NCBI GenBank assembly: GCA_016789445.1
Contig: JAEUQT010000001.1
Span: 131,603-195,602 of the forward strand
Length of the DNA: 64,000 nt
DNA from: a bacterium
GTDB lineage: Bacteria > Patescibacteriota > Minisyncoccia > Phycocordibacterales > UBA2100
Reading direction: 5' to 3'
The stretch's first letter is position 1; the number at the start of each line of letters is the position of its first letter. Below are positions 5,574-60,168 of this stretch, in pieces. The notes beneath the pieces were generated by a model that searched no databases, was not told where the DNA came from, and saw only the letters and a list, made by a program, of their open reading frames with translations. A program made the translations under genes and the position numbers.

Positions 5574-6167
5574 CTAGTTCCCGTACCAGCTTGTTCTCCA
5601 GATGCGCATCATTTCGATCTCACGGCTCTGGGAAGTGATGATGTTGTCAGCAAGCGTGCGCATCTCATCACGAGCTGTGCTCGATTCCAACATCGAAGCC
5701 ATCATGACAGCCATCTCGTGATGCGGAATCATTTGGTCTATGAACTCACGATCGAATTGGGCGTCGGAAACGCTTCTGAGCTCGTCGTTGTCCCCGGTCA
5801 TGCCATCCATGTGCATGCCGTGCTCCGTTCCCATCCCGCCTTGCGGTGGCGCCGAGCCGAACCAATCCTGATACCAAGATTTCATTTCAGCGATCTCGCG
5901 CTCCTGTGCTTCGATGATGCCATTCGCCAATGAGATTATCTCTGGACGCTTCGAGCGCTCAAGCGCGATTTCTGCCATGGCGATCGCACCCTCGTGGTGC
6001 GGGATCATCTGTACGATGAAGTGCTGGTCGATATTCTGCCGCATCTCTGAGCCACCAGACATCATATGCATGCCTCCACGGCCTACGCTGGATTGTGTGA
6101 GGGTATATCCGATGCCGGTACCGAGAACAAGCATGGCTACACCGACAATAAGTGCGTTCTTTTCCAT
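5574..6167 (-). CDS. DUF305 domain protein (secreted or membrane-anchored; metal-associated family)
   Basis: ORF 5574..6464 trimmed to MEKNALIVGVAMLVLG (6167). It has two repeats of the F...MIPHH(E)GA/MA motif typical of DUF305. Confidence 0.85.
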   Translation of the reverse strand: MEKNALIVGVAMLVLGTGIGYTLTQSSVGRGGMHMMSGGSEMRQNIDQHFIVQMIPHHEGAIAMAEIALERSKRPEIISLANGIIEAQEREIAEMKSWYQDWFGSAPPQGGMGTEHGMHMDGMTGDNDELRSVSDAQFDREFIDQMIPHHEMAVMMASMLESSTARDEMRTLADNIITSQSREIEMMRIWRTSWYGN

Positions 6168-6210
6168 AGTGAAGTTGATTAGTTTCCGGATTAAGTGAAA
6201 CGTTACCGAG

Positions 6211-6558
6211 CTACGGTTCTTTGCGGTTATGGATACCGCGCGAGACAAGCTCTTGGTAGAGCGTCGGTCGTGGGTTCCATTGATATGAACGAAGCCGGAC
6301 AGTCTCAGATACGCACATCGGCGTTCCGACTCGAAACACAGCAAGGCCGATGAACAGGACGAAAACCGACAAGATGGAAGAGAACATACTCTGCCACAGC
6401 GAGAGATGTTCGAGAGCCGCTTCAGAGCAGAGCGCCGCCTGCGCGGTCTGCAGCGGACAACCAAAGTGATGATCGGTGTGCGAAAGCAGGACCGGTAGTC
6501 CGAAAGCAGCGACGAAAAGCAGGATCACGATAAGCACTGAGGCAAGCTGTGCTTTCAT
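6211..6558 (-). CDS. hypothetical membrane protein
   Basis: N-terminal and central transmembrane helices, a HHFGCP...C cysteine/histidine motif, and a position upstream of DUF305. Confidence 0.5.
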   Translation of the reverse strand: MKAQLASVLIVILLFVAAFGLPVLLSHTDHHFGCPLQTAQAALCSEAALEHLSLWQSMFSSILSVFVLFIGLAVFRVGTPMCVSETVRLRSYQWNPRPTLYQELVSRGIHNRKEP

Positions 6559-7753: not shown

Positions 7754-7858
7754 AGAACCGTATCAGCTGCATTCACACTAGCAACAGGCCAAAAAGGCGC
7801 AAGTGCACAACACAACGGCGGCCCAAGGGCCGCTGTTGTGTCTTTTAAGTGGAGGATT

Positions 7859-9217
7859 TTATTCGATGAACGTGAGCGCCTTGCCGGTCTGCCCTGCGCG
7901 GCCCGTACGACCGATGCGGTGCACGTAATCCTCGTAGGAATTCGGCTGGTCGAAGTTGATGACGTGGGTCACCTTCGGGATGTCGAGGCCACGTGCGGCG
8001 ACGTCCGTCGCGACAAGCACCTGCACATGCTCTTTCTTGAAGAGATCGAGTGCGCGCAAACGCTGACCGTGGGTCTTGTTGCCGTGGATGGATTCCGCAC
8101 TGAAACCTGAATCCTTGAGGATCTTCGAGAGCTTCTCGACGCCGTGTTTGGTGCGGCCGAAGACCAGCACCTTCGTAAACTCCGGATCACGGAGAAGATC
8201 TGCAAGATGATCGAACTTGGACTTGCCCGGTTCGACGCGGACGATGTCCTGATCGACATTCTTGGAAGTCTCATGCTTTTTCACCGAGACACGAAGCGGA
8301 TCGGTGAGGAATTCACCGATGAGCTTCTCGATCTCCGGCGAGAGTGTCGCCGAGAAGAAGAGCGTCTGGCGTTCAGGCGCCATGCTGCCGAGGATGCGGC
8401 GCATGCTGTCGATGAATCCCATGTCGAGCATGCGGTCGGCTTCGTCGAGGACGACGTTCGCGCACTTCGTGAGATTGAGCTCACGGCGCTCCATGAGGTC
8501 CATGAGACGGCCCGGAGTTCCTATAAGGAATTGGCCTCCACGGCGAAGATCACGGATCTGCGAATTGATGTTCGCGCCGCCGACCGCGACGATCGAGTGA
8601 AGGCCGAGGCCCGTGACGAAGCCCTTGAATTCATCGGCGATCTGGACGGCAAGTTCACGCGTCGGCGCCATGATGAGCACCTTCTCGTCCGGATTCTTCA
8701 GGACCTTGTCGATGAGCGGGATGAGGAATGCGCCGGTCTTGCCGGTACCGGTCTCCGCGAGCCCGACCATGTCGCGACCCGTAAGAGTAAGCGGCACCGA
8801 TTGGTCTTGGATCGGAGTCGGGGTCACGTAACCCTTCTTCGCGATGTTCGCCTTGAGGCGTGCATCGATGTCGAAATCATTGAAGGTGTGCTTCGGCTCA
8901 TACGGAGCCTCCGGCGCTACTGCTTCTGCCTTACGAATGAACTTCGAGTAGTGGATATCCTGTCCGCGATGCGCGTTGCGCTGCGGACGACCCCCGCGGA
9001 ATCCTCCGCCGCGTGAACCGCCACGGAAACCGCCCTGAGGACGCGAGCCGCCATACGAACTCCCGCTACGACCGCCTTGCGGACGAGAGTATGAACCACC
9101 ACGCTGACCGCCTCCCCCGGAGGAGCGGCGCTTGTGACGAGGCGTACTGTTAAATCGGAGGCGGAAACCGCCTACCATGTCGTCGCTATTCTGCGAACGA
9201 CTATCGTTCTGATGCAT
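7859..9217 (-). CDS. DEAD-box ATP-dependent RNA helicase with N-terminal RGG-rich extension
   Basis: Motifs AETGTGKT, PTRELA, VLDEADRMLDMGF, SAT and HRIGRTGRAG. The first ~85 aa are R/G/S low complexity. Confidence 0.95.
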   Translation of the reverse strand: MHQNDSRSQNSDDMVGGFRLRFNSTPRHKRRSSGGGGQRGGSYSRPQGGRSGSSYGGSRPQGGFRGGSRGGGFRGGRPQRNAHRGQDIHYSKFIRKAEAVAPEAPYEPKHTFNDFDIDARLKANIAKKGYVTPTPIQDQSVPLTLTGRDMVGLAETGTGKTGAFLIPLIDKVLKNPDEKVLIMAPTRELAVQIADEFKGFVTGLGLHSIVAVGGANINSQIRDLRRGGQFLIGTPGRLMDLMERRELNLTKCANVVLDEADRMLDMGFIDSMRRILGSMAPERQTLFFSATLSPEIEKLIGEFLTDPLRVSVKKHETSKNVDQDIVRVEPGKSKFDHLADLLRDPEFTKVLVFGRTKHGVEKLSKILKDSGFSAESIHGNKTHGQRLRALDLFKKEHVQVLVATDVAARGLDIPKVTHVINFDQPNSYEDYVHRIGRTGRAGQTGKALTFIE

Positions 9218-9375
9218 ATTCTATGATGCGTTGCGGGCGCGAGCGGCCCTGGCTAATTCAACGCGTCTCGAGAGATTTCGGCCCCTGCTTGAACACCGGG
9301 ACGGCCTTGAGTTCTCTCAAGACAAAAACCACAGAGAAGGTTGATATCAGTAGTGTAGCAGAAATAAGGATTTTG

Positions 9376-9927
9376 TCAATCCGTTTTCCAACTCAGGTCG
9401 TAGGCGTACCGTTTGCCGCCGAGATCTTCGGCATGCACCTCACCGTCCAAACGCCCGTAGTCCATTACGCCTTGGAAGAATCCGGCGAAATGATCCAAGG
9501 GATAGTCATTGTTCTCCATAATGATACGGATGTTTCCTTTCCCTCGCTCCTCAGAAATGAAGCGCACCCCATTGAATACATAGCCGGCGATGTGGTTGGC
9601 ATTCATAAAGAAAAGGCGGATGTTCGAACGGAAGAGCGGCAGGATGAGTCCGCCGAGTTCCGTCTTGGAAAAGTTCTCGAAATGCAGTTTTCCTGCACTG
9701 AACGCACGTCGCTCCGGCGGCACGCTCGGATCGAGGATGTCGAGCACATGCTCGATGATAGCGACTTCTTCCCGCACCGGAACATTCTCGAACATACCGA
9801 AGCGGGTCGGCTTCCCGTAGCGCGTCATCAGCTCGACAACACCGTCGCGACCCCGCTCTGCTTCAAGCGCATTGATGTGACTCATGACGAACAGGCCTCG
9901 TATTGTAGGCGTAGGCTCTGGTTCCAT
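9376..9927 (-). CDS. hypothetical protein, DUF2378-like
   Basis: The ~180 aa size and C-terminal ...YAYDLSWK resemble the myxobacterial TIGR02265/DUF2378 family as I recall it. Not verified. Confidence 0.55.
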   Translation of the reverse strand: MEPEPTPTIRGLFVMSHINALEAERGRDGVVELMTRYGKPTRFGMFENVPVREEVAIIEHVLDILDPSVPPERRAFSAGKLHFENFSKTELGGLILPLFRSNIRLFFMNANHIAGYVFNGVRFISEERGKGNIRIIMENNDYPLDHFAGFFQGVMDYGRLDGEVHAEDLGGKRYAYDLSWKTD

Positions 9928-10067
9928 ACTTATATGATACGAGACGTATCAGGAAGCGCCGCCTTTCACCCGTGCGCAAAGCACGGAGTACCCCTCACCC
10001 CCTTTTCATCCTCATGAAGGCACTATGGTATATTCACAAGGCTTATTAAGTTCACGAACCTATTGAT

Positions 10068-10556
10068 ATGAAAGGTTTCGCAGTACTTCTCGCAGCTCTC
10101 GTCGTCCTTGGTGGCGGCTATTACTGGTACATCTCGCAGCAGCCGGCCGCGACTGATCTCAATGTGACCGTCGACCAGATGGATGATATGGATCAGGATG
10201 ATATGGATCATTCGGCATCGACCAGCACCTCGACGTCGACCGCGACATCCTCTGCTCCTGCGACGGGCACACAGAACGGCAACGTGAAGGAATTCACCGT
10301 CACCGGCAAGAACTTCTCATTCGCACCTGCTGCGATGACGGTCAACAAGGGCGATCGCGTCCGCATCACCTTCGTCAACGACAGCGGTACGCACGATCTC
10401 GTCATCGATGAGTTCGATGTACGCACCAAGGTCATCCAAGGAGGCGCACGGGAGACGATCGAGTTCGTCGCCGACAAGACCGGCAGCTTCGAGTACTACT
10501 GCTCGGTCGGTCAGCATCGCCAGATGGGCATGAAGGGTACGCTTACGGTTAAGTAA
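10068..10556 (+). CDS. cupredoxin (plastocyanin/azurin-like type 1 copper protein), membrane-anchored
   Basis: N-terminal transmembrane helix and an S/T/D linker. Copper ligands are GTHD ... YYCSVGQHRQMGM (His, Cys, His, Met). Confidence 0.85.
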   Translation: MKGFAVLLAALVVLGGGYYWYISQQPAATDLNVTVDQMDDMDQDDMDHSASTSTSTSTATSSAPATGTQNGNVKEFTVTGKNFSFAPAAMTVNKGDRVRITFVNDSGTHDLVIDEFDVRTKVIQGGARETIEFVADKTGSFEYYCSVGQHRQMGMKGTLTVK

Positions 10557-16610: not shown

Positions 16611-16747
16611 CGCCAGACAAGGATACTTTGGAAACCCTCGGTTTTCCAACGGTCGCCGAAGCGACCTGCCTTCCGACACGGGGAACTCCCGTTCCCCGAC
16701 CCCCTCCCTATCCAAGTCTGGCAACAAATCTCGTTGCACTCAATTTG
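16611..16747 (-). repeat. tRNA-trailing element, subfamily 2 (after tRNA-Gln)
   Basis: It shares gaaaccctcggttt and cttccgacacgg[hairpin]ccgacccctccc with the copy at 21842-21989. An inverted copy of the tRNA 3' end (16712-16729) forms an 18-bp hairpin with 16743-16760. A degenerate direct copy (cgccagacaaggat) lies at 16611-16624. Confidence 0.7.
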
Positions 16748-21841: not shown

Positions 21842-21989
21842 ACGGTCCGGGATTTCACTGCTCGCCGTATTCTCGGCTGCGCTTTCGAAACCCTCGGTTT
21901 CGAATAACTTCCGACACGGAGGGGGTCCGGTGGGTCCCCCTCCGACCCTCCCCCGTTCAATCCCGGTCGGGCCTCTCGCTACGCTCGTG
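21842..21989 (-). repeat. tRNA-trailing element, subfamily 2 (after tRNA-Thr GGU)
   Basis: Same conserved blocks as 16611-16747. The inverted copy gttcaatcccggtcg (about 21953-21967) is complementary to the tRNA T-arm/acceptor. The degenerate direct copy acggtccgggatt lies at 21842-21854. Confidence 0.7.
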
Positions 21990-22062
<73 letters not shown>

Positions 22063-24832: not shown

Positions 24833-25666
24833 ATGCTCGGTGTCATCCTGATCGCAGTCGGCGAACTCTTCGCCGAAGCAAGCGCTACGATCGGCCGCTA
24901 CGAAGTGAAGCACCGTAAAGAGACCCTCTATACGATGGGGTTCCTGAGCGGCTTCTGGGCCACGGTCTTCCTCGTCATCTACAGCTTCACGTGGGGAGAA
25001 TTCAGGTTTTCGTACGATAGTCTTCCGACATTCGGAGCGCGACTCGGCCTCGAGATAGCGCTTCTTCTTTTCTCATTGCACGCGATGGTTCAGGCCGATA
25101 GGAGCACGTTCGCGTTCCTGCGCACGTTCACTATCCCCCTGCTTCTTGCGGCAGACCTCGCGCTTGGATACCCGCTTTCCATCAATCAGGTATTCGGTGT
25201 ATCTCTTATCGTCATCGCGCTCCTCATCCTTCTTCTCAATCACGGCCTCAGCCGTCGCGGCAAGCTGCTCTCGCTCATGTCGGCGATCTGCGCGGTAGGG
25301 ACGATCACGCTCTACAAGTACAACATCACGTATTTCAATTCAGTCGAAGCCGAGCAGACATTGATGCACGTGTTCCTGCTGGTTGCGATCGCAGCAGCCG
25401 CAAAGCTTCAGACCGGCGAAGATGTCACCCGTCGCATGTTCAAACCGGTCTTCTTCGCACAATCGCTTCTCGCCGGTGTCGCGACCATGCTCTTCAGTTT
25501 CGCGTTCCTGTTCGCCCCGGCCTCTGTCATCACGGCGGTGAAGCGGTCCTTGGAGATCCTTGGTGCAATCGTCTTCGGTCGCAAGTATTTCCATGAGAAA
25601 CACGTGCTCCTGAAACTGCTCGCCTGTGCGCTCGTTGCGGGAGGGATCGGGCTGATGGTGGTGTAG
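24833..25666 (+). CDS. DMT/EamA-like 10-TM transporter
   Basis: 277 aa with ~10 hydrophobic helices in two halves. Family assignment is by topology only. Confidence 0.55.
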   Translation: MLGVILIAVGELFAEASATIGRYEVKHRKETLYTMGFLSGFWATVFLVIYSFTWGEFRFSYDSLPTFGARLGLEIALLLFSLHAMVQADRSTFAFLRTFTIPLLLAADLALGYPLSINQVFGVSLIVIALLILLLNHGLSRRGKLLSLMSAICAVGTITLYKYNITYFNSVEAEQTLMHVFLLVAIAAAAKLQTGEDVTRRMFKPVFFAQSLLAGVATMLFSFAFLFAPASVITAVKRSLEILGAIVFGRKYFHEKHVLLKLLACALVAGGIGLMVV

Positions 25667-25670
25667 GTTT

Positions 25671-25899
25671 GAGTGACGGGACTCGGTCACAGATATTTCT
25701 TGCGCCGTCGGACAGATTTTTTCGCGACCATAGGCATCGTCTCGGCCAAGAGCTCATTCGTCGCCGTCGCTCCTCATTCCTCTCGGCCCTGATTTTGCGA
25801 CCCCGTCTGCTGACGGGTCCGCCGCAAAATCTTTCGAGTCCCGCCACTCTGCTGAAAAACGCAACAACCCCGACGGCATGCGTCGGGGTTGGCGTTTTG
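25671..25899 (-). repeat. tRNA-trailing element, subfamily 1, composite (after tRNA-Asp)
   Basis: The direct copy gagtgacgggactcg at 25671-25685 matches tRNA 25903-25917 and is followed by GTCACAGATA. The inverted copy is ttcgagtcccgccactc at ~25832-25848. A terminator hairpin CCCCGACG/CGTCGGGG with U-run (25855-25888) lies next to the tRNA. Confidence 0.8.
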
Positions 25900-25973
25900 C
25901 GCGAGTGACGGGACTCGAACCCGCAGCCTTTCCCGTGACAGGGGAATGCTCTAACCAATTGAGCTACACCCGC
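25900..25973 (-). tRNA. tRNA-Asp (anticodon GUC)
   Basis: GCGGGTG TA GCTC AATTGGTTA GAGC A TTCCC CTGTCAC GGGAA AGGCT GCGGG TTCGAGT CCCGT CACTCGC G. Confidence 0.9.
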
Positions 25974-26088
25974 AAGTGAGGAGTAAAGAGGATGCTAGCA
26001 TACTCTTTCTCCGAGCGCAGCGGGTGTATGAGCTCACGATTACACCCGCATTCAGAGGCGGCTAAGCCGCATGAGCCCGTACAATATA

Positions 26089-26352
26089 TCACTTCCCTCC
26101 CCTTTTCAAACCCTTCTTCCCTAAGAGATGCTTCGCCACATCCATGCCGGAAACCAAGCCCCAGACAGCATTCACCACCATGAACGGCAGCACTCCCGAA
26201 TGGTACGCATACGTAAATAGGCCTATGGATGCGACGAAGTTCAAGAGGTCGTAGGTAAGGCTTTCCGCATCAAGTTTGCTCCACTCATTACCGACAAAGG
26301 CGGTCAGTGTAAGGGCCGCCGAGCCGATACCGATGATGTCTATAAACTCCAT
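26089..26352 (-). CDS. small membrane protein, CBU_0592-like
   Basis: 87 aa with three transmembrane helices. The pattern D..G..G..L...F........D...Y..LN...S resembles that family. Moderate recall only. Confidence 0.5.
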   Translation of the reverse strand: MEFIDIIGIGSAALTLTAFVGNEWSKLDAESLTYDLLNFVASIGLFTYAYHSGVLPFMVVNAVWGLVSGMDVAKHLLGKKGLKRGGK

Positions 26353-26370
26353 CTCTCTATTCTATCGTAG

Positions 26371-26539
26371 TGTCGAGGGTGGGGGTCGGTCACGAATAAT
26401 TTCTGTCCCGTCGGACAGAAATTTTCGCGACCCCGGCTCGCGGTCTCGCCTGCTGGCGAGACATCGCTCCGCCTTTCGACCCCCACACGCTGTGTGCGCA
26501 GGCACACAGCCCTCGACACAAATCCACTTCGTATATTTG
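26371..26539 (-). repeat. tRNA-trailing element, subfamily 1 (after tRNA-Met)
   Basis: The 18-nt direct repeat tgtcgagggtgggggtcg occurs at 26371-26388 and 26540-26557. Core hairpins lie at 26388-26432 and 26443-26462. The inverted copy is cgacccccac (26477-26486) + hairpin + cctcgaca (26511-26518). Confidence 0.85.
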
Positions 26540-26613
26540 TGTCGAGGGTGGGGGTCGAACCCACGACCTTGGCTTTATGAATGCCACGCTCTAACCAACT
26601 GAGCTACCCCGAC
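26540..26613 (-). tRNA. tRNA with CAU anticodon (elongator Met, or Ile2 if lysidinylated)
   Basis: GTCGGGG TA GCTC AGTTGGTTA GAGC G TGGCA TTCATAA AGCCA AGGTC GTGGG TTCGACC CCCAC CCTCGAC A. It has a 31:39 A-A mismatch. Confidence 0.85.
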
Positions 26614-26723
26614 AAGTGAGGAACAAAATGAGGATATACCATATTCTCATTTTTTCCGAACGCAGTCGGGCGCATGAGCATGCGAGGACCCGACGTCCTG
26701 CCAAACGTATCATTTTAACGTGC

Positions 26724-27143
26724 TTATTTCAACGTTCCTTTTACGCTCTCGAAAAACTCCTTGTCCTTGGGATGCGTGAGTAATTTCGAGACGTCATCGA
26801 TCGGAACCCATCGCGCCTCGGGATTATCAGCATCGGTCGGTGCAAGCGCTTGCTGCAGGGTCTTATAGAGGAACATATGGATACGCTTCAGCTCACTCGT
26901 ATCCTCTCCCTCCCCGCCCTTACCGATCTTGTAGCGCTCGTACGACCCGAGGTCGCGAATGAACGCCAGCTGCGTGACGCCTGATTCTTCGATAATCTCA
27001 CGCTCCGCCGCTTGCTGCGGCGTCTCTCCCGGATCAACATGACCTTTCGGCAGAGACCACGAATCACCGCGCTGACTGACGACGATCACCTCATTGAGCT
27101 GGTTAAGCACGATACCTCCTGCGCTTTCGGTCACGTTCTGCAT
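26724..27143 (-). CDS. NUDIX hydrolase
   Basis: ORF 26724..27446 trimmed to MQNVTESAGG. Nudix box GHVDPGETPQQAAEREIIEESG. The upstream 101 codons run through the repeat and the tRNA. Confidence 0.85.
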   Translation of the reverse strand: MQNVTESAGGIVLNQLNEVIVVSQRGDSWSLPKGHVDPGETPQQAAEREIIEESGVTQLAFIRDLGSYERYKIGKGGEGEDTSELKRIHMFLYKTLQQALAPTDADNPEARWVPIDDVSKLLTHPKDKEFFESVKGTLK

Positions 27144-27165
27144 GGCGGTAGTATGCCATATGTAC

Positions 27166-27425
27166 GCAGGGCGGGCTTGGTCAAGAACATTTCTTGCTTC
27201 CGTCGAAGCAAGAAATTTCTCGGCCCTGATGTTGCGGGGGCGGGCTTGGTCACGGATAATCTTCGCGCCGTCGCGCGAAGATTTCCGCGACCCCGGCTCG
27301 CGGTTTCGCCCACTGGCGAAACATCGCTCCGCCTTGCAAGTCCAGCACGAAAAGCGCACCGGCGCTTTTCTCCCCGCGACTGCACAAACACAAAACCGCC
27401 CGTACGGCGGCTTTGTGTTTGCTTG
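27166..27425 (-). repeat. tRNA-trailing element, subfamily 1, tandem (one short plus one full copy; after initiator-like tRNA)
   Basis: The direct copy gttgcgggggcggg at 27231-27244 matches 27425-27438. A second degenerate copy gcagggcgggcttg lies at 27166-27179. The core hairpin P-a is at 27303-27322. The inverted copy is tgcaagtcc + hairpin + ccccgc, and a terminator hairpin lies at ~27391-27415. Confidence 0.85.
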
Positions 27426-27497
27426 TTGCGGGGGCGGGACTTGCACCCGCGACCTCCAGGTTATGAGCCTGGCGAGCTACTACTGCTCCACCCCGCT
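27426..27497 (-). tRNA. tRNA-Met (CAU), initiator-like, with non-canonical D- and T-loops
   Basis: A GCGGGG TG GAGC AGTAGTA GCTC G CCAGG CTCATAA CCTGG AGGTC GCGGG TGCAAGT CCCGC CCCCGCA A. It has a 1:72 A-A mismatch, no GG in the D-loop, and G at T-loop position 55. Confidence 0.75.
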
Positions 27498-27539
27498 ATG
27501 AAGTGCGTAGTATACCTCACGAGGAAGTGTGAGGCAAAT

Positions 27540-28153: not shown

Positions 28154-29572
28154 TTAGGCAGCCTTCTCAACATCAGCGCCGATCATAAGAAGCGCGTCTT
28201 CTCCGTGATGTGGACCGATGAGCTGGAAACCTACCGGAAGAGCCTTTCCATCACGCTGCACTGATCCCGATGGAACCGAGAGCGCAGGGACACCTGCGAG
28301 ATTGACCGGCACGGTAAAGATGTCCGCTGCATACATCGCGACCGGATCCGATTTCTCACCAAGCTTCCACGCCGGGATCGGCGACGTCGGTGTTGCAATA
28401 GCATCGACACCCTCGAATGCTTTCTCGAGATCGGAACGGATGAGCGCACGGACAGCACGCGCCTTTCGATAGTACGCATCGGCGTATCCGGACGAGAGAA
28501 CGAACGTCCCCACGAGGATGCGGCGGCGCACTTCCGGACCGAAGCCCTGACCGCGCGATTTCTCATAGACGCTCGAGATATCTTCCGCAGGAACGGAGAG
28601 TCCGTAGCGGATGCCGTCGTAGCGCGCAAGGTTGGTCGAGACTTCGGCAGGATTGATGATGTAGTAGACCGCGAGCGAATGCGCAAGGTTCGGCAGCTCG
28701 ATATCACGGACCTCATATCCTGCGGTACGAAGATCGGTGAGCGTCTTTTCGAACGCAGCAAGCACATCGGGATCTACCCCCTTTTCAAGGAGCGCACGAG
28801 GTACGCCGATGACTTTCTTCAGATTCTTCGCCGCGGTGCGCACATTCTCAGGAAGCGACGTGCTGTCATTCGCGTCATATCCTGCGATCGCTTCGCGCAT
28901 GATGCGCGCGTCTTCGGTGTTCTTCGTGATGGGACCGATCTGATCGAGCGATGATGCTGCGGCCATGAGTCCGAAACGCGATACGGTGCCATACGTGGTC
29001 TTCAGTCCCACGACGCCACAGAATGCGGACGGCTGACGGATGGAGCCGCCGGTATCCGATCCAAGTGCTGCAAGCGCGAGATTCCCCGCGACCGCTGCCG
29101 ACGAACCACCGGAAGTGCCGCCCGGCACACGTGCCGTATCGATCGGATTCTTCGTCGGTCCGAATGCCGAGTTCTCGGTAGAACCGCCGAGCGCGAATTC
29201 ATCCATGTTGGTGCGGCCAAGAAAGATTGCCCCCTGTTCTTTCAGCTTGGTGATGACCGTCGCATCGTATGACGCACGATAGTTCTCCAACATCTTCGAT
29301 GCGGAAGATGCGATGCGACCCTTGATGAGAATATTGTCTTTCACCGCGATCGGGATACCGGTAAGCGGCTTCACATCGCCTTTTGCGATGCGCTCATCAG
29401 CCGCCTTCGCTTCTTCTCGCGCCGAATCCTTCCACACCTCGAGGTAGGCATGGATTTCCGGATCGCGCTTCTCGATCTCCGCAAGATACGCATCGGTGAG
29501 TTCGAGCGCCGTGAATTCCTTCGCATCAAGAGCTTTACGCGCCGAGGAGATAGTGAGTTTCGAGAGATCCAT
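28154..29572 (-). CDS. gatA: Asp/Glu-tRNA amidotransferase subunit A
   Basis: Amidase signature GGSSGGSAAAVA. 472 aa, downstream of gatC. Confidence 0.95.
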   Translation of the reverse strand: MDLSKLTISSARKALDAKEFTALELTDAYLAEIEKRDPEIHAYLEVWKDSAREEAKAADERIAKGDVKPLTGIPIAVKDNILIKGRIASSASKMLENYRASYDATVITKLKEQGAIFLGRTNMDEFALGGSTENSAFGPTKNPIDTARVPGGTSGGSSAAVAGNLALAALGSDTGGSIRQPSAFCGVVGLKTTYGTVSRFGLMAAASSLDQIGPITKNTEDARIMREAIAGYDANDSTSLPENVRTAAKNLKKVIGVPRALLEKGVDPDVLAAFEKTLTDLRTAGYEVRDIELPNLAHSLAVYYIINPAEVSTNLARYDGIRYGLSVPAEDISSVYEKSRGQGFGPEVRRRILVGTFVLSSGYADAYYRKARAVRALIRSDLEKAFEGVDAIATPTSPIPAWKLGEKSDPVAMYAADIFTVPVNLAGVPALSVPSGSVQRDGKALPVGFQLIGPHHGEDALLMIGADVEKAA

Positions 29573-44415: not shown

Positions 44416-44585
44416 TGCGGAGAGGGAGGGATTCGGTCACGGATAATTTTCTGCTGAAAATTTCCGCGACCCCGCCTCGTCGCCTACGCTCCTGCGACTT
44501 TCGAATCCCTCCGTTTCGCTATGCGAAACCGCCACCCTTTCGGGCGGCGCTCTCCGCAAAAAACTTGCGGGTCTCGTTTTTTTTG
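44416..44585 (-). repeat. tRNA-trailing element, subfamily 1 (after tRNA-Ser) - clearest exemplar
   Basis: The 20-nt direct repeat tgcggagagggagggattcg occurs at 44416-44435 and 44584-44603. The hairpin GGTCACGGATAATTTTC tgct GAAAATTTCCGCGACC lies at 44435-44471. The inverted copy is ttcgaatccctcc + two small hairpins + ctctccgc. Confidence 0.88.
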
Positions 44586-50982: not shown

Positions 50983-51148
50983 GTCACGGATAATTCAATG
51001 AGTGTCAATATCGAGTCCCCAGGGATAATTTTGTCGCCGTCGCTCCAAAATTTCCCCGGGCCTGGCTCGCGGTCGCGCGTACTCGCGCGACATCGCTCCG
51101 CCTCGGACCAGTAAACAAAAACAGCGCTCAATGCGCTGTTTTTGATTC
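50983..51148 (-). repeat. tRNA-trailing element, subfamily 1 (after tRNA-Ile), no distal direct repeat
   Basis: GTCACGGATAAT at 50983. There is an inner hairpin CCCAGGGATAATTTTG..CAAAATTTCCCCGGG, P-a GTCGCGCG tact CGCGCGAC (51072-51091), catcgctccgcc, and a short inverted match ggaccag. A bidirectional terminator ACAGCGC tcaat GCGCTGT lies at ~51121-51139. Confidence 0.8.
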
Positions 51149-51225
51149 TGGTCCGCCCTCTTGGATTCGAACCAAGGACCGCAAAGGTATAAGCTTTGTG
51201 CTCTAACCAACTGAGCTAAGGGCGG
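51149..51225 (-). tRNA. tRNA-Ile with genuine UAU anticodon, CCA encoded
   Basis: CCGCCCT TA GCTC AGTTGGTTA GAGC A CAAAG CTTATAC CTTTG CGGTC CTTGG TTCGAAT CCAAG AGGGCGG A CCA. Confidence 0.85.
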
Positions 51226-56730: not shown

Positions 56731-56921
56731 CAGCCAATGCAAGCCGCCTTCCAGGCGGCTTTTGCATTTGCATTGCGACGGTGGAGATGAAGAAAGCGCC
56801 TGCGCGCTTTCTGCGGGGGTCTCGAAAGGCGGAGCGCTGTTCCGACAGCAGGCGGAACCGCGAGCCGGGGTCGCGGAAATTCAAAGGCGACGGCGTTTGA
56901 ATTATCTGTGACCGATTCCGC
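56731..56921 (+). repeat. trailing element, subfamily 1 (after tmRNA)
   Basis: Terminator AAGCCGCC ttcca GGCGGCTT TT (56741-56765). Inverted copy GGTGGAGATG + hairpin + GCGGGGGTCTCGAA. Core AGGCGGAGCGCTG, P-a 56839-56858, CCGCGAGCCGGGGTCGCGGAAAT...ATTATCTGTGAC (ends 56912). The direct copy cgattccgc at 56913-56921 matches 56713-56721. Confidence 0.85.
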
Positions 56922-56972: not shown

Positions 56973-58298
56973 ATGCCGAAGCGATACTGGTGGAAGGATG
57001 CGAAGATATACGAGCTCTACGTCGATCGCTTCGCGGGGAATTTCCAGAACCTGACGGCACAATTGGATTACCTGGAGCGTCTTGGCATCAACGCACTCCA
57101 CATCCTCCCCCACTACCCGTCGCCCATGGCCGATGGCGGCTATGACGTGATGGAATATCTCAACGTCCGGCCGGAACTCGGCACGATCGAGGATTTCGAT
57201 ACCTTCCTCAAAGAAGCGCACCGCCGCGATATCAAAGTCATCATCGACTTCGTCCTCAATCACGTCTCAGAACATCATCCTTGGTTCTTGGAGGCGCGAT
57301 CATCGAAAGACAACAACAAGCGCGATTACTTTTTATGGAGCGAGAGCGGACACGAACTCGCCCTCGGTTGGAATGCCTTCCCCGACATCAAGCCTGGCAA
57401 TTGGATATTCAACGAAGAGACGCAGGACTACTACTATGCGACCTTCTATCCGCAGCAGCCGGATCTGAATTGGGACAATCCGGAAGTCTTCGCAAGCATG
57501 ATGCAGAACATGGATTTCTGGGCCGGCCGCGGCGTGGACGGCTTCCGCTTGGACGCAGCGGTGACGCTCATCAAACGAGACGGCACGCTCTCGAAAGGAT
57601 TGCCGGAAACGCACCAGCTCATCAAACGCATCCGCAAACACTTGGACACGAAATTCGGCGGCGAGATCGTCCTTCTTGCTGAAGCGCATCAGCACGTCAA
57701 AGAGATGAAGACGTATTTCGGGGACGGCGACGAATGCCATCTCGTGTACCATTTCTCACTCACCGAGCAGCTCTTCCTCGCTCTTATGCGCAATGATCGC
57801 ACCGAACTCGATGCGATGCTTGAGGAATCACGCGACATCCCGGAGAACTGCCAGTGGGCGATCTTTCTGCGCAATCACGACGAACTCTCGCTCGCGACAC
57901 TCGCCCCTGAAGTACGCACCGAGCTCATCACCTATCTTGATCCGAAGAGCGAATATCTTTTCAATGGCGGCGCAGCGACCGCCAAGAGGTTGGGCAGCAT
58001 GTTCGACGAAGCGAAGCTGCGCGAAGCGATTTCTCTCCTCTACTCGCTTCCGGGGGCGCCTATCATGTACTACGGCGACGAGATCGGCATGCAGAATCTT
58101 CCACGTACGGAAGGCGTGATCGACAGCCGCGTGTACGTCCGCGGTGAATTCGATTGGCTTGAGGCCGGGCTGCAGCGCAGTGATCCTGATTCCCTCTACA
58201 ACTTCACGAAGGGTGTCATCCGTAAATCACTCTGGCCATATAAGCGGGATTTCAATTCACCTCCCCCAGAAGAGGGATCGCCAAGCGACGACGAGTAG
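56973..58298 (+). CDS. GH13 alpha-amylase-family glycosidase (trehalose-synthase/amylosucrase-like N-terminal and catalytic domains)
   Basis: WWKDAKIYELYVDRF, GYDV.DY, DFVLNH, GFRLDA and the LLAE...NHD motif series. Confidence 0.85.
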   Translation: MPKRYWWKDAKIYELYVDRFAGNFQNLTAQLDYLERLGINALHILPHYPSPMADGGYDVMEYLNVRPELGTIEDFDTFLKEAHRRDIKVIIDFVLNHVSEHHPWFLEARSSKDNNKRDYFLWSESGHELALGWNAFPDIKPGNWIFNEETQDYYYATFYPQQPDLNWDNPEVFASMMQNMDFWAGRGVDGFRLDAAVTLIKRDGTLSKGLPETHQLIKRIRKHLDTKFGGEIVLLAEAHQHVKEMKTYFGDGDECHLVYHFSLTEQLFLALMRNDRTELDAMLEESRDIPENCQWAIFLRNHDELSLATLAPEVRTELITYLDPKSEYLFNGGAATAKRLGSMFDEAKLREAISLLYSLPGAPIMYYGDEIGMQNLPRTEGVIDSRVYVRGEFDWLEAGLQRSDPDSLYNFTKGVIRKSLWPYKRDFNSPPPEEGSPSDDE

Positions 58299-59556
58299 TC
58301 TCACCTTTGAAGAGTTGCCGCGTCCGCTCCGGCATGTCTCCTCGCTCGCCAAGATGCGCGCCGAATTTCATCGCCTGGAAACTCGAACCGAGGAAGACTG
58401 CGTGTTTACCGTATCGTTCCGATATCGCATCCACGCTCTCGAACACCATCTTCAATCCTTGGGATTCTTCCACTTTGCCGAAAAGATCGAGCTGAAGACT
58501 GTCCGCGGGGCGCAGCTGCGCGAGGGTCACGCCGCTCGCACGATACAGCTTCCCGTTCTCGAAAACCTGCGGGAAGAATTTAGCGACCTCGCGCAGGACA
58601 TCCTGCGGGACATTCGTGGGGTGCGGGAGCTTCACTTCGATACCGTGGTATCTGAAATCCTGTGTCTTGAGAAAGAAGAACACGCGATCACTCGCGAGAT
58701 TCCATCGGCGCGCCTTGATGCACGCATTCTCGACATTTTTGGAGAGCTGACTGAAGATAAACTTCGCATCGCGCAATGGTGGCGTGAAGGTCTTGGTCTT
58801 CTGGATGCTCTGGTAGCTGGTCTTCTTTTCCGTCGTGAGTGGATAGATGGCTTCGCCATTGAGCTCCCGCCAGATCTCCTGCACCGGCTTCGAAACTTTC
58901 GCACGCACCCATGGTTCGTTCTTGCGCGCAAAATCGAGCGCGCTCTGAATACCGAACTTATTGAGATACGCCGCAGTGTTTGGCCCGATCCCCCATACAT
59001 TCCCTACCGGCAGCTTTCCGAGAAATTTTGATGCGTCGCTGAGCGGTATCGAGGTGAGACCATCAGGCTTCTTCCATTTCGAACCGACCTTCGCCAGGAC
59101 TTTCGTCGCCGAGAGACCCACACTGAACGTGATGCCGAGCTTCACCTGCAGCTCCTGCTTAATGGAATGCGCCATGTCGTGGTAGTTCATCCGATTCACG
59201 CGGCGCATACCGGTGAGGTCCGCGAAGCATTCATCAATGGAATACTCCTCGACGGCAGGCGTGTAGCGACGCACGATCTCGTACATACGCTCTGAATATA
59301 GACTGTAGGTCTCGTAATCCGACGGCAGCACGATCGCATCTGGGCACGCTTCAAGAGCTTCGCTTAATTTGACCCCGCGCTTCACGCCGCGACGCTTCGC
59401 CTCGTAGGTGCACGCAGAGACGATGCCGCGCTCTTTGCCGGTGATGACCGGCTTACCGCGCAGCTTTGGATTCTTTGCCACTTCGACTGCAGCAAAGAAA
59501 GAGTCACCATCCACGTGCAGGATGGCTCTGGGATACGAGTATGACTTACCCCACAT
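58252..59556 (-). CDS. dinB: Y-family DNA polymerase IV
   Basis: ILHVDGDSFFAAVE, SIDECFADLTG and SVGLSATKVLAK motifs. It converges on and overlaps the GH13 gene by 47 nt. Confidence 0.93.
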   Translation of the reverse strand: MWGKSYSYPRAILHVDGDSFFAAVEVAKNPKLRGKPVITGKERGIVSACTYEAKRRGVKRGVKLSEALEACPDAIVLPSDYETYSLYSERMYEIVRRYTPAVEEYSIDECFADLTGMRRVNRMNYHDMAHSIKQELQVKLGITFSVGLSATKVLAKVGSKWKKPDGLTSIPLSDASKFLGKLPVGNVWGIGPNTAAYLNKFGIQSALDFARKNEPWVRAKVSKPVQEIWRELNGEAIYPLTTEKKTSYQSIQKTKTFTPPLRDAKFIFSQLSKNVENACIKARRWNLASDRVFFFLKTQDFRYHGIEVKLPHPTNVPQDVLREVAKFFPQVFENGKLYRASGVTLAQLRPADSLQLDLFGKVEESQGLKMVFESVDAISERYGKHAVFLGSSFQAMKFGAHLGERGDMPERTRQLFKGETTRRRLAIPLLGEVN

Positions 59557-59576
59557 AGGCCATGTACGTCCGGACT

Positions 59577-59635
59577 GTCACGGATAATTTTCTGCTGAAA
59601 ATTTCCGCAACCCCGCCTCGACACCTAAAGTGTCT
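59577..59635 (-). repeat. solo partial copy of the subfamily-1 core (no tRNA adjacent)
   Basis: GTCACGGATAATTTTCTGCTGAAAATTTCCGCAACCCCGCCTCG differs at one base over 44 nt from the Ser-linked copy at 44436-44479. It lies 20 nt upstream of the dinB start. Confidence 0.8.
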
Positions 59636-59682
59636 CCGGCCTTGCGAAGCTCCATGTATTCGCTTCTCACCCCAGACCATAG

Positions 59683-60168
59683 CTACCTGAACTTAAGCGT
59701 GTAGGCTGGCTTGAATGCAGGAAGTGGTGCGTACCGCGAAGTGCGTGGTAGCGGCGTCCGCATGCGTGATGGCCGGATCTGTTTCGCAGGCTTTACCGGA
59801 TTCGTCTCGGCAAGAAATTCCATGACCGCGAGATTCACCGTAGCGAATTGCCGATCACTGATGCGACCGAGACGACGGATAAGCTGGTCCTTCCGCAGCA
59901 TGCGCATCTGCGAAAGGGTTCCGGTGCGGTTCGCACCCTTGAGTGACGTAAGAAAATAAAACGGGGTTTCCTTACCGCTCGCACGCGACGTAAGCGGCAA
60001 TCCCCAGAACGTATCGGTACCGAGCGTACGGAACACCAAGACCGGCCTCTCAGCTGCAGCGTCGGTTGCCGAAGGCACCGAACACCACCAGATATCCTGC
60101 GCACGATATTTCACTTCTCGTACGCGCGCTGTCTTCTTCGAAAAAATGTGGGAAAGCTGTTTAAACAT
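59683..60168 (-). CDS. MazF/PemK-family toxin-like protein with basic C-terminal tail
   Basis: DIWWCSV......ERPVLVF.......FWGLPLTS.........F......G...TLSQMRMLRKDQLIRRLG.IS...F matches the solitary PemK-like pattern. Confidence 0.7.
   Translation of the reverse strand: MFKQLSHIFSKKTARVREVKYRAQDIWWCSVPSATDAAAERPVLVFRTLGTDTFWGLPLTSRASGKETPFYFLTSLKGANRTGTLSQMRMLRKDQLIRRLGRISDRQFATVNLAVMEFLAETNPVKPAKQIRPSRMRTPLPRTSRYAPLPAFKPAYTLKFR

Follow-up and report, generated by a model that had tools for sequence, protein, structure and literature searches.

How a 150-nt non-coding element enters the T-loops of dozens of different tRNAs, with the gene rebuilt each time, is the question posed by the sequence behind an initiator-like tRNA-Met gene (tRNA-iMet) of a patescibacterial contig. 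The genomes of CPR bacteria (Patescibacteria) are tiny, and mobile DNA is generally regarded as scarce in them. The window is the whole stretch of 64,000 nucleotides that was analysed. In it, ARAGORN predicted eight tRNA genes, all on the minus strand, and one tmRNA gene on the plus strand. An earlier note had read positions 27166-27425, behind tRNA-iMet, as two stacked copies of the tRNA 3' segment; its coordinates were all right, the repeats being exact over 15 nt, and what it described is far above chance. This stretch is probably a stack of two non-coding insertion units of a type here called family A, with the following features:

27425-27497, minus strand: tRNA-Met(cat) with an initiator-like acceptor end, the intact target gene (ARAGORN; Rfam tRNA, 60.6 bits)
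27384-27422, minus strand: terminator-like hairpin that forms the 5' part of the proximal unit, its 17-bp stem leading into a T-run (inverted repeat I5; MFE fold)
27335-27380, minus strand: inverted copy of the tRNA 3' part, in two halves (inverted repeat I12; fold)
27372-27380, minus strand: outer inverted half GUCGCGGGG, near-complement of the acceptor 3' strand
27349-27370, minus strand: hairpin between the outer and inner inverted halves (fold)
27335-27346, minus strand: inner inverted half GCUGGACUUGCA, complement of the T-loop and T-stem 3' strand
27248-27333, minus strand: family A core, long form, 86 nt with two hairpins (covariance model R1, 104.8 bits, E 1e-23)
about 27230-27248, minus strand: proximal direct copy CAAG-CCCGCCCCCGCAACA (plus strand gttgcgggggcgggcttg), which spans the tRNA from C56 to the discriminator but lacks one base, a 3' end displaced by the newer insertion (direct repeat D10)
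27180-27229, minus strand: short module of about 50 nt, the 3' hairpin of an older unit of the A2 variant (partial covariance model match; fold z = -5.5)
27166-27179, minus strand: distal copy of the tRNA 3' end AAGCCCGCCCUGC, more decayed, the oldest of the displaced ends (direct repeat D3)

The covariance model R1 was built from 75 family A copies of other genomes, and it matched both the full core and the short module that had been distinguished in the earlier note; the match to the short module (27179-27235, minus strand) is partial, reaching 24.8 bits with an E-value of 5e-4 over the 3' hairpin alone. When the proximal copy is aligned to the tRNA 3' end (27424-27442), 15 nt are exact and a 1-nt deletion follows, and the distal and proximal copies have a further exact 15 nt in common, GGGCGGGCTTGGTCA (27169-27183 versus 27238-27252). 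The order given previously, with the tRNA-end copy placed before the core, has to be reversed, since in the tRNA sense the copy comes after the core. The promoter region of the NUDIX gene comes after the distal copy. Additionally, the block of the short module that had been seen to reappear inside the Asp-linked copy is TTCTCGGCCCTGAT, which constitutes the 5' strand of the variant 3' hairpin in both places and recurs at 25780-25793 with one mismatch, where 0.04 matches would be expected. The Asp-linked copy, described earlier as longer and with extra sequence, is a composite of a diverged core and a second hairpin.

Units of family A or of a second family, B, trail eight of the nine tRNA and tmRNA genes of the window, tRNA-Thr(cgt) being its sole RNA gene without any unit. 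The family A architecture was found behind tRNA-iMet, tRNA-Asp, tRNA-Met, tRNA-Ser, tRNA-Ile and the tmRNA gene, and family B, which has a different conserved core with the same type of flanks, behind tRNA-Gln and tRNA-Thr(ggt). An inverted copy of the tRNA 3' part, missed in the earlier note, lies in each unit (inverted repeats I2, I6, I7, I9 and I12). The remaining family A features of the window are:

25671-25898, minus strand: composite stack behind tRNA-Asp (repeats and covariance model; the whole composite aligns with the relative L126)
25833-25849, minus strand: inverted copy of the tRNA-Asp stack, 3' of the terminator
25744-25831, minus strand: diverged A2-type core of the tRNA-Asp stack (24.2 bits)
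25685-25729, minus strand: second hairpin of the tRNA-Asp stack
25671-25685, minus strand: 15-nt direct copy of the tRNA-Asp stack
26370-26538, minus strand: single young unit behind tRNA-Met, with a split inverted copy (direct repeat D6)
26388-26473, minus strand: core of the tRNA-Met unit (covariance model, 103.8 bits)
26370-26388, minus strand: direct copy of the tRNA-Met unit, a perfect 19 nt
44416-44584, minus strand: unit behind tRNA-Ser(gct) (repeats and covariance model)
44435-44498, minus strand: short-form core of the tRNA-Ser(gct) unit (52.9 bits)
44416-44436, minus strand: 21-nt direct copy of the tRNA-Ser(gct) unit
51017-51102, minus strand: core behind tRNA-Ile(tat) (83.7 bits)
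56828-56913, plus strand: core behind the tmRNA gene, in the same orientation as that gene (95.3 bits)
59576-59640: extra family A core between mazF-like and dinB-like genes (covariance model)

The tRNA-Asp stack is older, as it is common to the window and L126, where the terminator stem of the composite differs by compensatory changes and the second module is fuller. The core behind tRNA-Ile(tat) likewise carries compensatory changes, at three pairs of its basal stem (CCCGGGG/CCCUGGG), and the direct copy of the tmRNA unit is decayed after 9 nt. The best pair of cores within the window, which covers 64 kb of the genome, is 81% identical.

A pattern derived from the core was scanned against species-representative genomes, yielding at least 120 loci, all but one of which are labelled Patescibacteria or unclassified bacterial MAGs, the odd one out (L051) being labelled Gammaproteobacteria. 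The matches fall in Paceibacteria, Kaiser-, Adler-, Zambryski-, Nomura- and Moranbacteria and other lineages. Same-strand tRNA or tmRNA genes lie 45-383 nt upstream of 79 of the 122 pattern matches, and these 79 comprise 35 anticodon types plus tmRNA; stacks of units are common among the loci, and in two of them (L055 and L058) the unit adjoins a 5S rRNA gene on the opposite strand. A phage or prophage remnant was rejected, as 2.9 million viral contigs gave no match to the core pattern. Within a genome, the copies are 64-81% identical, and blocks of core sequence are kept across a class-level clade. There was no sign of tRNA-specific core lineages, the similarity being 0.529 for pairs with the same anticodon and 0.556 for the others (p = 0.97), and a 91%-identical core stands at a different tRNA. 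The cores cluster weakly by locus, and a recent intragenomic burst was rejected because the nearest neighbour of a core lay in the same locus in 0 of 21 cases. Several contigs stop inside units, which probably break short-read assemblies.

In the sense of the tRNA, the parts of a unit are a terminator-like hairpin, X', which is an inverted copy of the tRNA 3' segment (X), and the core, after which comes a direct copy of X. The hairpin, which resembles an intrinsic terminator, opens most units, so that little read-through RNA is expected. X extends from C56 in the T-loop to 1-8 nt beyond the tRNA end, mostly over 19-22 nt, and occurs twice per unit, in the intact tRNA and again as a second copy that is followed by the ancestral downstream flank. 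Two classes of flank were distinguished. In class i, GUGAC is followed by the segment from C56 to the tRNA end plus 1-8 trailer bases, with exact repeats of 10-32 nt (mode 19), and in class ii by the last few tRNA bases and trailer alone, with a duplication of about 4-8 nt. The repeats hold the trailer bases of the gene and no CCA; their source is therefore DNA or precursor RNA, and a retro-copy of mature tRNA was ruled out. In all 35 units whose exact repeat measures 10 nt or more, the spacing from repeat to repeat is 99-196 nt, which leaves no space for a gene, and no large autonomous version occurs among these 35; the units have no coding capacity.

The inverted copy inside the unit lies directly 5' of 'AAAG' and the core; often, a hairpin divides it precisely where its acceptor half meets its T-stem half. 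Among 34 class i units, its inner part is complementary to the tRNA at 7.6 of 10 positions, versus 5.7 in shuffles, and its outer part at 7.1 of 10, versus 6.25. The outer half of X' does no better than chance in many young units; thus, X' is not simply copied from the target upon insertion. In the same 34 units, the inner 10 nt of the distal copy are identical to the tRNA at 9.0 of 10 positions and the outer 10 nt at 5.9, with 13 copies intact and 19 decayed.

Since a conserved scaffold stands directly before 15-28 nt identical to the tRNA gene, and GGTT precedes the segment in the tRNA, the core and distal copy could be taken for a guide-RNA gene, either a TnpB/IscB omega-RNA or a CAST homing guide, with the T-loop GGTT as PAM or TAM. 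This is highly improbable, given that the supposed guide is that of the neighbouring intact tRNA, which bears the same target, so that an active nuclease would attack its own genome, that the upstream inverted copy would sequester the guide, and that the guides decay freely in older units. An omega-RNA or guide-RNA gene was rejected, there being no adjacent nuclease gene, whether TnpB-, IscB- or Cas-like, near the units examined. TIGR-Tas arrays, which consist of 36-nt box C/D guides (PMC12045711), are unlike the units and were rejected as well.

The family A core measures 62-88 nt, comprises two hairpins and ends in ...GUGAC-C. Its consensus runs GNC-GGAG-hairpin (with an AU bulge)-CGAG-N'C-GG-long hairpin GGUCGCGGA...GACG...A-UCCGUGACC, and over the 75 sequences the 3' hairpin reads GGUCGCGGA-AAUUUUC...loop...GAAAAUU-A-UCYGUGACC. 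In these 75 sequences, 91% of the cells at paired positions hold a pair, compared with about 44% when the partners are slid, and 369 double-change cells were observed against 112 in shuffles, the double changes falling at 22 pairs; part of the 3' hairpin was set by the search pattern, and covariation is uninformative there, but the three compensatory pairs of the tRNA-Ile copy in the window fall in that stem. The pair 53-85 is most commonly G.U (49 of the 75 sequences), which on the opposite strand would give C.A, and under the covariance model R1 the sense matches score 83-105 bits and the antisense ones at most 30 bits, a difference of about 3-4-fold. Therefore, the folded strand is the tRNA-sense strand. 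The conserved inner repeat and k-turn-like GA loops suggest that the fold itself is under selection. At gathering thresholds, Rfam 15 reported tRNA and tmRNA alone over the whole window, and at E of at most 10 nothing credible over 25600-27520. A hammerhead-like reading of the three-way junction was rejected because the conserved strands do not fit, as was a loop-loop pairing between UGCU of the upstream hairpin and AGCA loops, for which support by eye was inconsistent.

The comparison of the same tRNA loci in related genomes, which the earlier note had proposed as a check, was carried out on Logan and JGI contigs retrieved through homologues of GatA (28154-29572; 90-99.8% identity) and syntenic with the window (ligA-gatC-gatA-ORF-tRNA-iMet-NUDIX-tRNA-Met-...). 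Those of L129, L140, L141 and L122 stem from the runs SRR33128028, SRR27712898, SRR16938233 and SRR29876768. The NUDIX protein as bait for strain variants had given one identical contig only, and GatA worked. Although the tRNA-iMet gene is 100% identical in every relative compared, seven states with 0, 1 or 2 units were seen behind it in relatives whose flanks are 79-99.5% identical to those of the window. The alleles are given here with their flank nucleotide identity:

L129 (99.5%): two-unit stack as in the window
L140 (99.1%): one unit, a long family A unit with the distal copy directly after it
L141 (97.8%): family B unit in place of the proximal unit, with the short module and distal copy of the window behind it
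L122 (87.9%): full-length A2 unit and a still older remnant (..CGUGACC/AAGCCC)
L124 (81%): family B unit, the contig ending within it
L125 and L134 (about 80%): terminator, UGACC (the last 5 nt of a unit) and a decayed copy, with no core
L126 (81%): tRNA inverted, terminator alone, no unit

All of these alleles share ...GCAACAAG and then diverge, the terminator differing per allele. The short module of the window is orthologous to the 3' half of the A2 unit that L122 has in full. The distal copy is kept as AAGCCCGCC.. in L122, L140 and L141; in L125 and L134 it has decayed. At the neighbouring tRNA-Met locus, a naked gene is present in L134 and L136, where it reads ...CGACCCCCACCCTCGACAC/TACGGTAGAATAGAGGTC/ATG. 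In the window the sequence is ...GUGAC/CGACCCCCACCCTCGACAC/TACGATAGAATAGAGAG/ATG, with the flank after the distal 19-nt repeat, and it follows from the match of the flanks that the copy distal to the unit bears the ancestral flank. Against L134, the window allele is a clean 169-nt insertion that includes the 19-nt duplication. The units are thus insertions, with junctions at C56 and just past the tRNA end and with the segment between them duplicated.

From these relatives, a history at tRNA-iMet can be reconstructed in which an A2 unit would have been inserted in ancient times and would then have lost its 5' half, probably by deletion between CGCAA microhomologies, leaving the short module behind the tRNA. 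Subsequently, a long family A unit would have entered the T-loop at 55/56 in the lineage of the window, L129 and L140, and a B unit in that of L141. Finally, L140 would have lost the proximal copy and the short module, that is, the 69 nt between two 15-nt repeats TGACCAAGCCCGCCC that it lacks; units are also lost by slippage between repeats. The newer unit is always at the proximal position, and a new insertion into the same tRNA would move older units outward. For instance, in L069 a B unit stands between tRNA-Arg and its displaced 3' end, and an A unit still comes after that end. In L003, the two units that follow the tmRNA gene have 2 differences in about 130 nt. The successive insertions suggested earlier are thus borne out by the states with 0, 1 and 2 units, with the amendments that the older unit was shortened by deletion and that the units are not remnants of classical integrative elements. 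There is further evidence that units move. The B unit of L141 differs from that of L124 at 1 of 98 nt, their flanks being about 84% identical, and the sole metagenome match to the 3' hairpin of the window's tRNA-Met unit has a core 91% identical behind tRNA-Trp in an unrelated genome, where the inverted copy matches tRNA-Trp.

These alleles bear on the reading of the units as resident functional RNAs, in which tRNA trailers would be inherited vertically, the repeats being kept by selection and the stacks produced by local duplication. The t'/t2 helix would then mimic the acceptor and T stems and thereby expose the core RNA to processing or marking by RNase P, RNase Z or the CCA-adding enzyme. 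Such a role would agree with the strong covariation and the invariant primary-sequence blocks across a class-level clade, with the retention of the inner distal copy even where the outer part has decayed, with in-genome copies that are old and each well folded, and with t' halves split by a hairpin just where the tRNA body would emerge. It is nevertheless quite improbable, because strains 98-99.5% identical differ at one and the same tRNA in whether a unit is there and in its family, neither tRNA-Met nor tRNA-iMet of L134 needs a unit to work, and one unit is 99% identical in backgrounds 84% identical. Moreover, the terminator usually lies between tRNA and core, which argues against abundant co-transcribed RNA, and some units are antisense to the adjoining RNA gene, as with 5S rRNA in L055 and L058. 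Vertical inheritance alone is excluded for the units; an RNA function is possible.

The same movements could be attributed to no dedicated machinery at all, the units having arisen rarely, for example by template switching at quasi-palindromes of the T-arm or terminator, and having spread by natural transformation and homologous recombination with the tRNA gene as left arm and the repeated tRNA end as right arm. The order X-loop-X'-core-X would match a tandem inversion duplication, genomes 80-99% identical have tRNA genes that are 100% identical, genes for a type IV pilin and a prepilin-peptidase adjoin the tRNA-iMet locus in the window, near-identical B units occupy the same tRNA in diverged genomes, and units are lost through repeat slippage. 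On the other hand, recombination alone leaves unexplained why the same cores stand behind 35 anticodon types and tmRNA with junctions exactly at C56, and how cores 91% identical came to stand behind tRNA-Met and tRNA-Trp, which makes this account, as a complete explanation, unlikely.

Since the units encode nothing, their insertion would have to occur in trans or by the nucleic acid itself. One candidate is a conventional tyrosine or serine integrase with its gene elsewhere in the genome, on a phage or on a plasmid, which would move the units in trans as miniature att-site cassettes. Each element would bear a replacement tRNA 3' end (attP), a crossover in the T-loop would displace the old end, and tandem accretion would proceed as in ICEs and CIMEs. 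The repeat from T-loop to tRNA end, which is that of the classical T-loop class of tRNA integration sites, speaks for such an integrase, as do the proximal position of newer units and the distal one of older units, the same unit at the same tRNA in diverged genomes and the XerD homologues present in some loci (L077 and L103). The earlier statement that the window holds no recombinase gene agrees with a tblastn search of the 64 kb, which found no ORF resembling XerD, lambda Int or IS200 TnpA, a result valid at the sensitivity of its approximate query sequences alone. Both this lack of an integrase-like ORF and the 2.9 million viral contigs without a match speak against the integrase. In addition, the units are uniformly 100-200 nt without cargo, and a double-stranded circle so small is hard to form; close cores sit at different tRNA types with matching flanks, so that attP would have to be rewritten per tRNA; and strand-specific covarying hairpins and an inverted target copy are foreign to double-stranded attP sites. 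An integrase acting in trans is consequently an unlikely source of the units.

An alternative in which the inverted copy guides the insertion is put forward tentatively. The element would act as a single strand of tRNA-sense polarity, which could be ssDNA or RNA. X' would pair with the target segment X and so place the conserved 3' hairpin at T-loop position 55/56, where strand transfer would take place, and repair synthesis across X would generate the duplication. Judged from the sequences, a target duplication made by a staggered cut and a tRNA 3' end borne by the element would both fit the data. For the spread of a unit to the same tRNA elsewhere, homologous recombination may suffice, because a donor of the form tRNA-unit-X would be homologous to a naked tRNA at both ends. 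A broader and somewhat more doubtful proposal is that of a system free of protein genes, in which a target-complementary segment would guide a structured strand of about 150 nt, DNA or RNA, into whichever tRNA T-loop it matches. The tRNA end would be duplicated by templated synthesis, with a host housekeeping enzyme or the core as catalyst. No fewer than three unrelated core families would use this system, namely A, B and one on the 5' side.

If this broader proposal holds, such a system would represent a general, unrecognised mode of DNA mobility in CPR bacteria, and targeting by way of the inverted copy, if true, would amount to a compact and programmable principle of insertion. Should the RNA be functional, the units would form a widespread undescribed class of structured RNA with a tRNA-like closing helix. 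The tRNA-flank loci change between strains whose flanks are 98-99.5% identical, and the units mark these flanks as chief sites of structural turnover; at the same spot, one strain has received a 1.2-kb gene cassette. No description of these elements was found in full-text searches of the literature.

Integrative elements of tRNA genes (ICE/CIME) resemble the units in having a repeat that begins in the T-loop and reaches the tRNA end, an intact gene, an old end displaced outward and the newest element next to the tRNA. They differ from the units, which are 100-200 nt long, gene-less and without a linked integrase, which hold an inverted target copy and a strand-specific covarying core, and of which one core family serves dozens of tRNAs. 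A classical tRNA-integrating element was thus rejected: the 15-28-nt repeats that start at C56 fit, but a unit has no space for an ORF, and the tblastn search of the window gave no integrase gene. MITEs, PATEs (IS200/IS605 derivatives) and REP/REPIN sequences are also small, non-coding, hairpin-rich, multi-copy and non-autonomous, and they are often clustered and located in gene 3' flanks; the units, in contrast, lack element-specific terminal inverted repeats, and their duplication is a defined 19-22-nt piece of tRNA instead of 2-10 bp of arbitrary target. We know of no parent IS for the units. A MITE was rejected given that the inverted repeat is target-derived, the duplication has 15-28 nt in class i flanks and about 4-8 nt in those of class ii, and near-identical in-genome copies are absent, the best pair in the 64 kb of genome covered being that of 81% identity. 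An IS200/IS605 PATE or a REP/RAYT system has subterminal hairpins on one strand, inserts without duplication 3' of a fixed tetra- or pentanucleotide and goes with a Y1 transposase in the genome. In the units, the strand-specific hairpins are present, the junction is fixed at TT/CGAA-like T-loops, a duplication is present, and no TnpA-like ORF was found in the window with the approximate query.

Casposons and the repeat duplication of CRISPR arrays, both due to Cas1-type integrases, are alike in producing long target duplications through widely staggered strand transfers, and some casposons target tRNA 3' ends; the casposon duplication is 14-15 bp. They are unlike the units, since no Cas1 was seen in the loci read, the units have no terminal inverted repeats and are far smaller, and one boundary of their duplication is fixed (C56) and the other variable. 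Integron attC sites and the attP hairpin of CTX phage share with the units strand-specific hairpins, conserved extrahelical bases, an inverted target-like site beside the junction and an integration that favours accumulation; however, they use IntI or XerCD at attI or dif, whereas the units target the tRNA T-loop in a putative single-stranded form. In Patescibacteria, tRNA genes also contain group I introns, which are non-coding and structured, mostly without a homing endonuclease, and which are located in the anticodon loop and spliced out (PMC13011429). In being structured, non-coding and inserted into the tRNA genes of this phylum they resemble the units, but the units leave a complete tRNA through duplication of its 3' end and have a 62-88-nt core with no Rfam intron match, and the introns were rejected as an explanation because of their different insertion site. 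The units are classed as a new variety among the miniature non-autonomous mobile elements, akin to integrative elements in landing and stacking and to MITEs, PATEs and REPINs in size and non-autonomy.

A second conserved structured core, family B, was found that is unrelated to the two-hairpin core of family A, which characterizes the gene-less units behind tRNA and tmRNA genes. The family B consensus reads GGGGUCGGG-hairpin-CCCGUGNNGGAAGG-hairpin-GGAAAACCGWGGGUUUCC, and the RNA genes preceding it include tRNA-Gln, tRNA-Thr(ggt) and tmRNA, among others. As in family A, the core is flanked by inverted and direct copies of the tRNA end and, in sister strains, family B can stand in place of family A behind the same tRNA.

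Family B cores in the window and in contigs from other genomes (L numbers)
Window 16620-16746, minus strand: family B core
Window 21850-21990, minus strand: family B core
L097, 4800-4960: family B core
L069, 7020-7215: family B core
L141 (relative syntenic with the window), 2740-2900: family B core
L142: family B core
L122 (syntenic relative), 8695-8770: antisense core directly after tRNA-Met, contig end inside core
L140 (syntenic relative), 8650-8678: antisense core directly after tRNA-Met, contig end inside core

Since several other contigs likewise end inside units, it is suggested that the unit repeats break short-read assemblies.

One family A core in the window, a short form, is remote from any tRNA. 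Ahead of it stands a conserved hairpin whose loop reads GAAUACUUGGA. The core lies downstream of a gene for a LexA-like S24 peptidase, in the interval between a dinB/umuC-like polymerase gene (58252-59556) and a mazF/pemK-like toxin gene (59683-60168).

Short-form family A core remote from tRNA genes, and related units in other genomes
Window 59576-59640, minus strand: short-form core
L055, 4264-4325: related unit just 3′ of 5S rRNA, opposite strand
L058, 1004-1065: related unit just 3′ of 5S rRNA, opposite strand

Among the window tRNA genes whose 3′ flank was read (Gln, Asp, Met, iMet, Ser and Ile), none encodes CCA, and the trailers often start with CA(A). In the unit of tRNA-Ile (anticodon TAT; 51149-51225), a direct copy of the tRNA end could not be recognised. 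Just beyond this unit, an isolated fragment, GTCACGGATAATTC, corresponds to the plus strand of the A core's 3′ end (50983-50996) and is probably a relic of an older stacked unit.

Larger inserts were also seen at unit-bearing loci. The syntenic relative L129, a strain with 99.5% flank identity to the window, has a 1177-nt cassette (9361-10537) with a gene for an LD-carboxypeptidase (Peptidase_S66). The cassette is positioned at the exact tRNA-Asp 3′ end (window equivalent ~25896), with the 10-nt repeat CUCGCGCAAA on both sides, and the window's terminator and composite tRNA-Asp unit follow unchanged. At L003, a locus from another genome, a segment of ~650 nt (5813-6490) that contains a small ORF on its reverse strand and is bordered by the repeat UCCACA is inserted in a displaced copy of the tmRNA 3′ end, between two nearly identical A units. 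In a single relative (L126, flanks 81% identical to the window), tRNA-iMet and its terminator (7784-7856) have the reverse orientation with respect to the conserved genes on either side, possibly through rearrangement at these repeat-rich loci.

A third module family lies 5′ of tRNA genes.

5′-side modules in the window
25974-26075, minus strand: upstream of tRNA-Asp
26614-26700, minus strand: upstream of tRNA-Met

Each is an insert of ~90 nt in which tRNA nucleotides 1-9 recur as a displaced copy (e.g., AUGCGGGUGUA), together with the complement of that copy (UACACCCGC). A conserved stretch with CUCACUU at its end comes next, and then the real tRNA. The module is missing upstream of tRNA-Asp in L126 and upstream of tRNA-Met in L134, another syntenic relative. 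The X-loop-X′-core-X layout, where X′ is the inverted copy of X, is common to these 5′-side modules and the 3′-side units.
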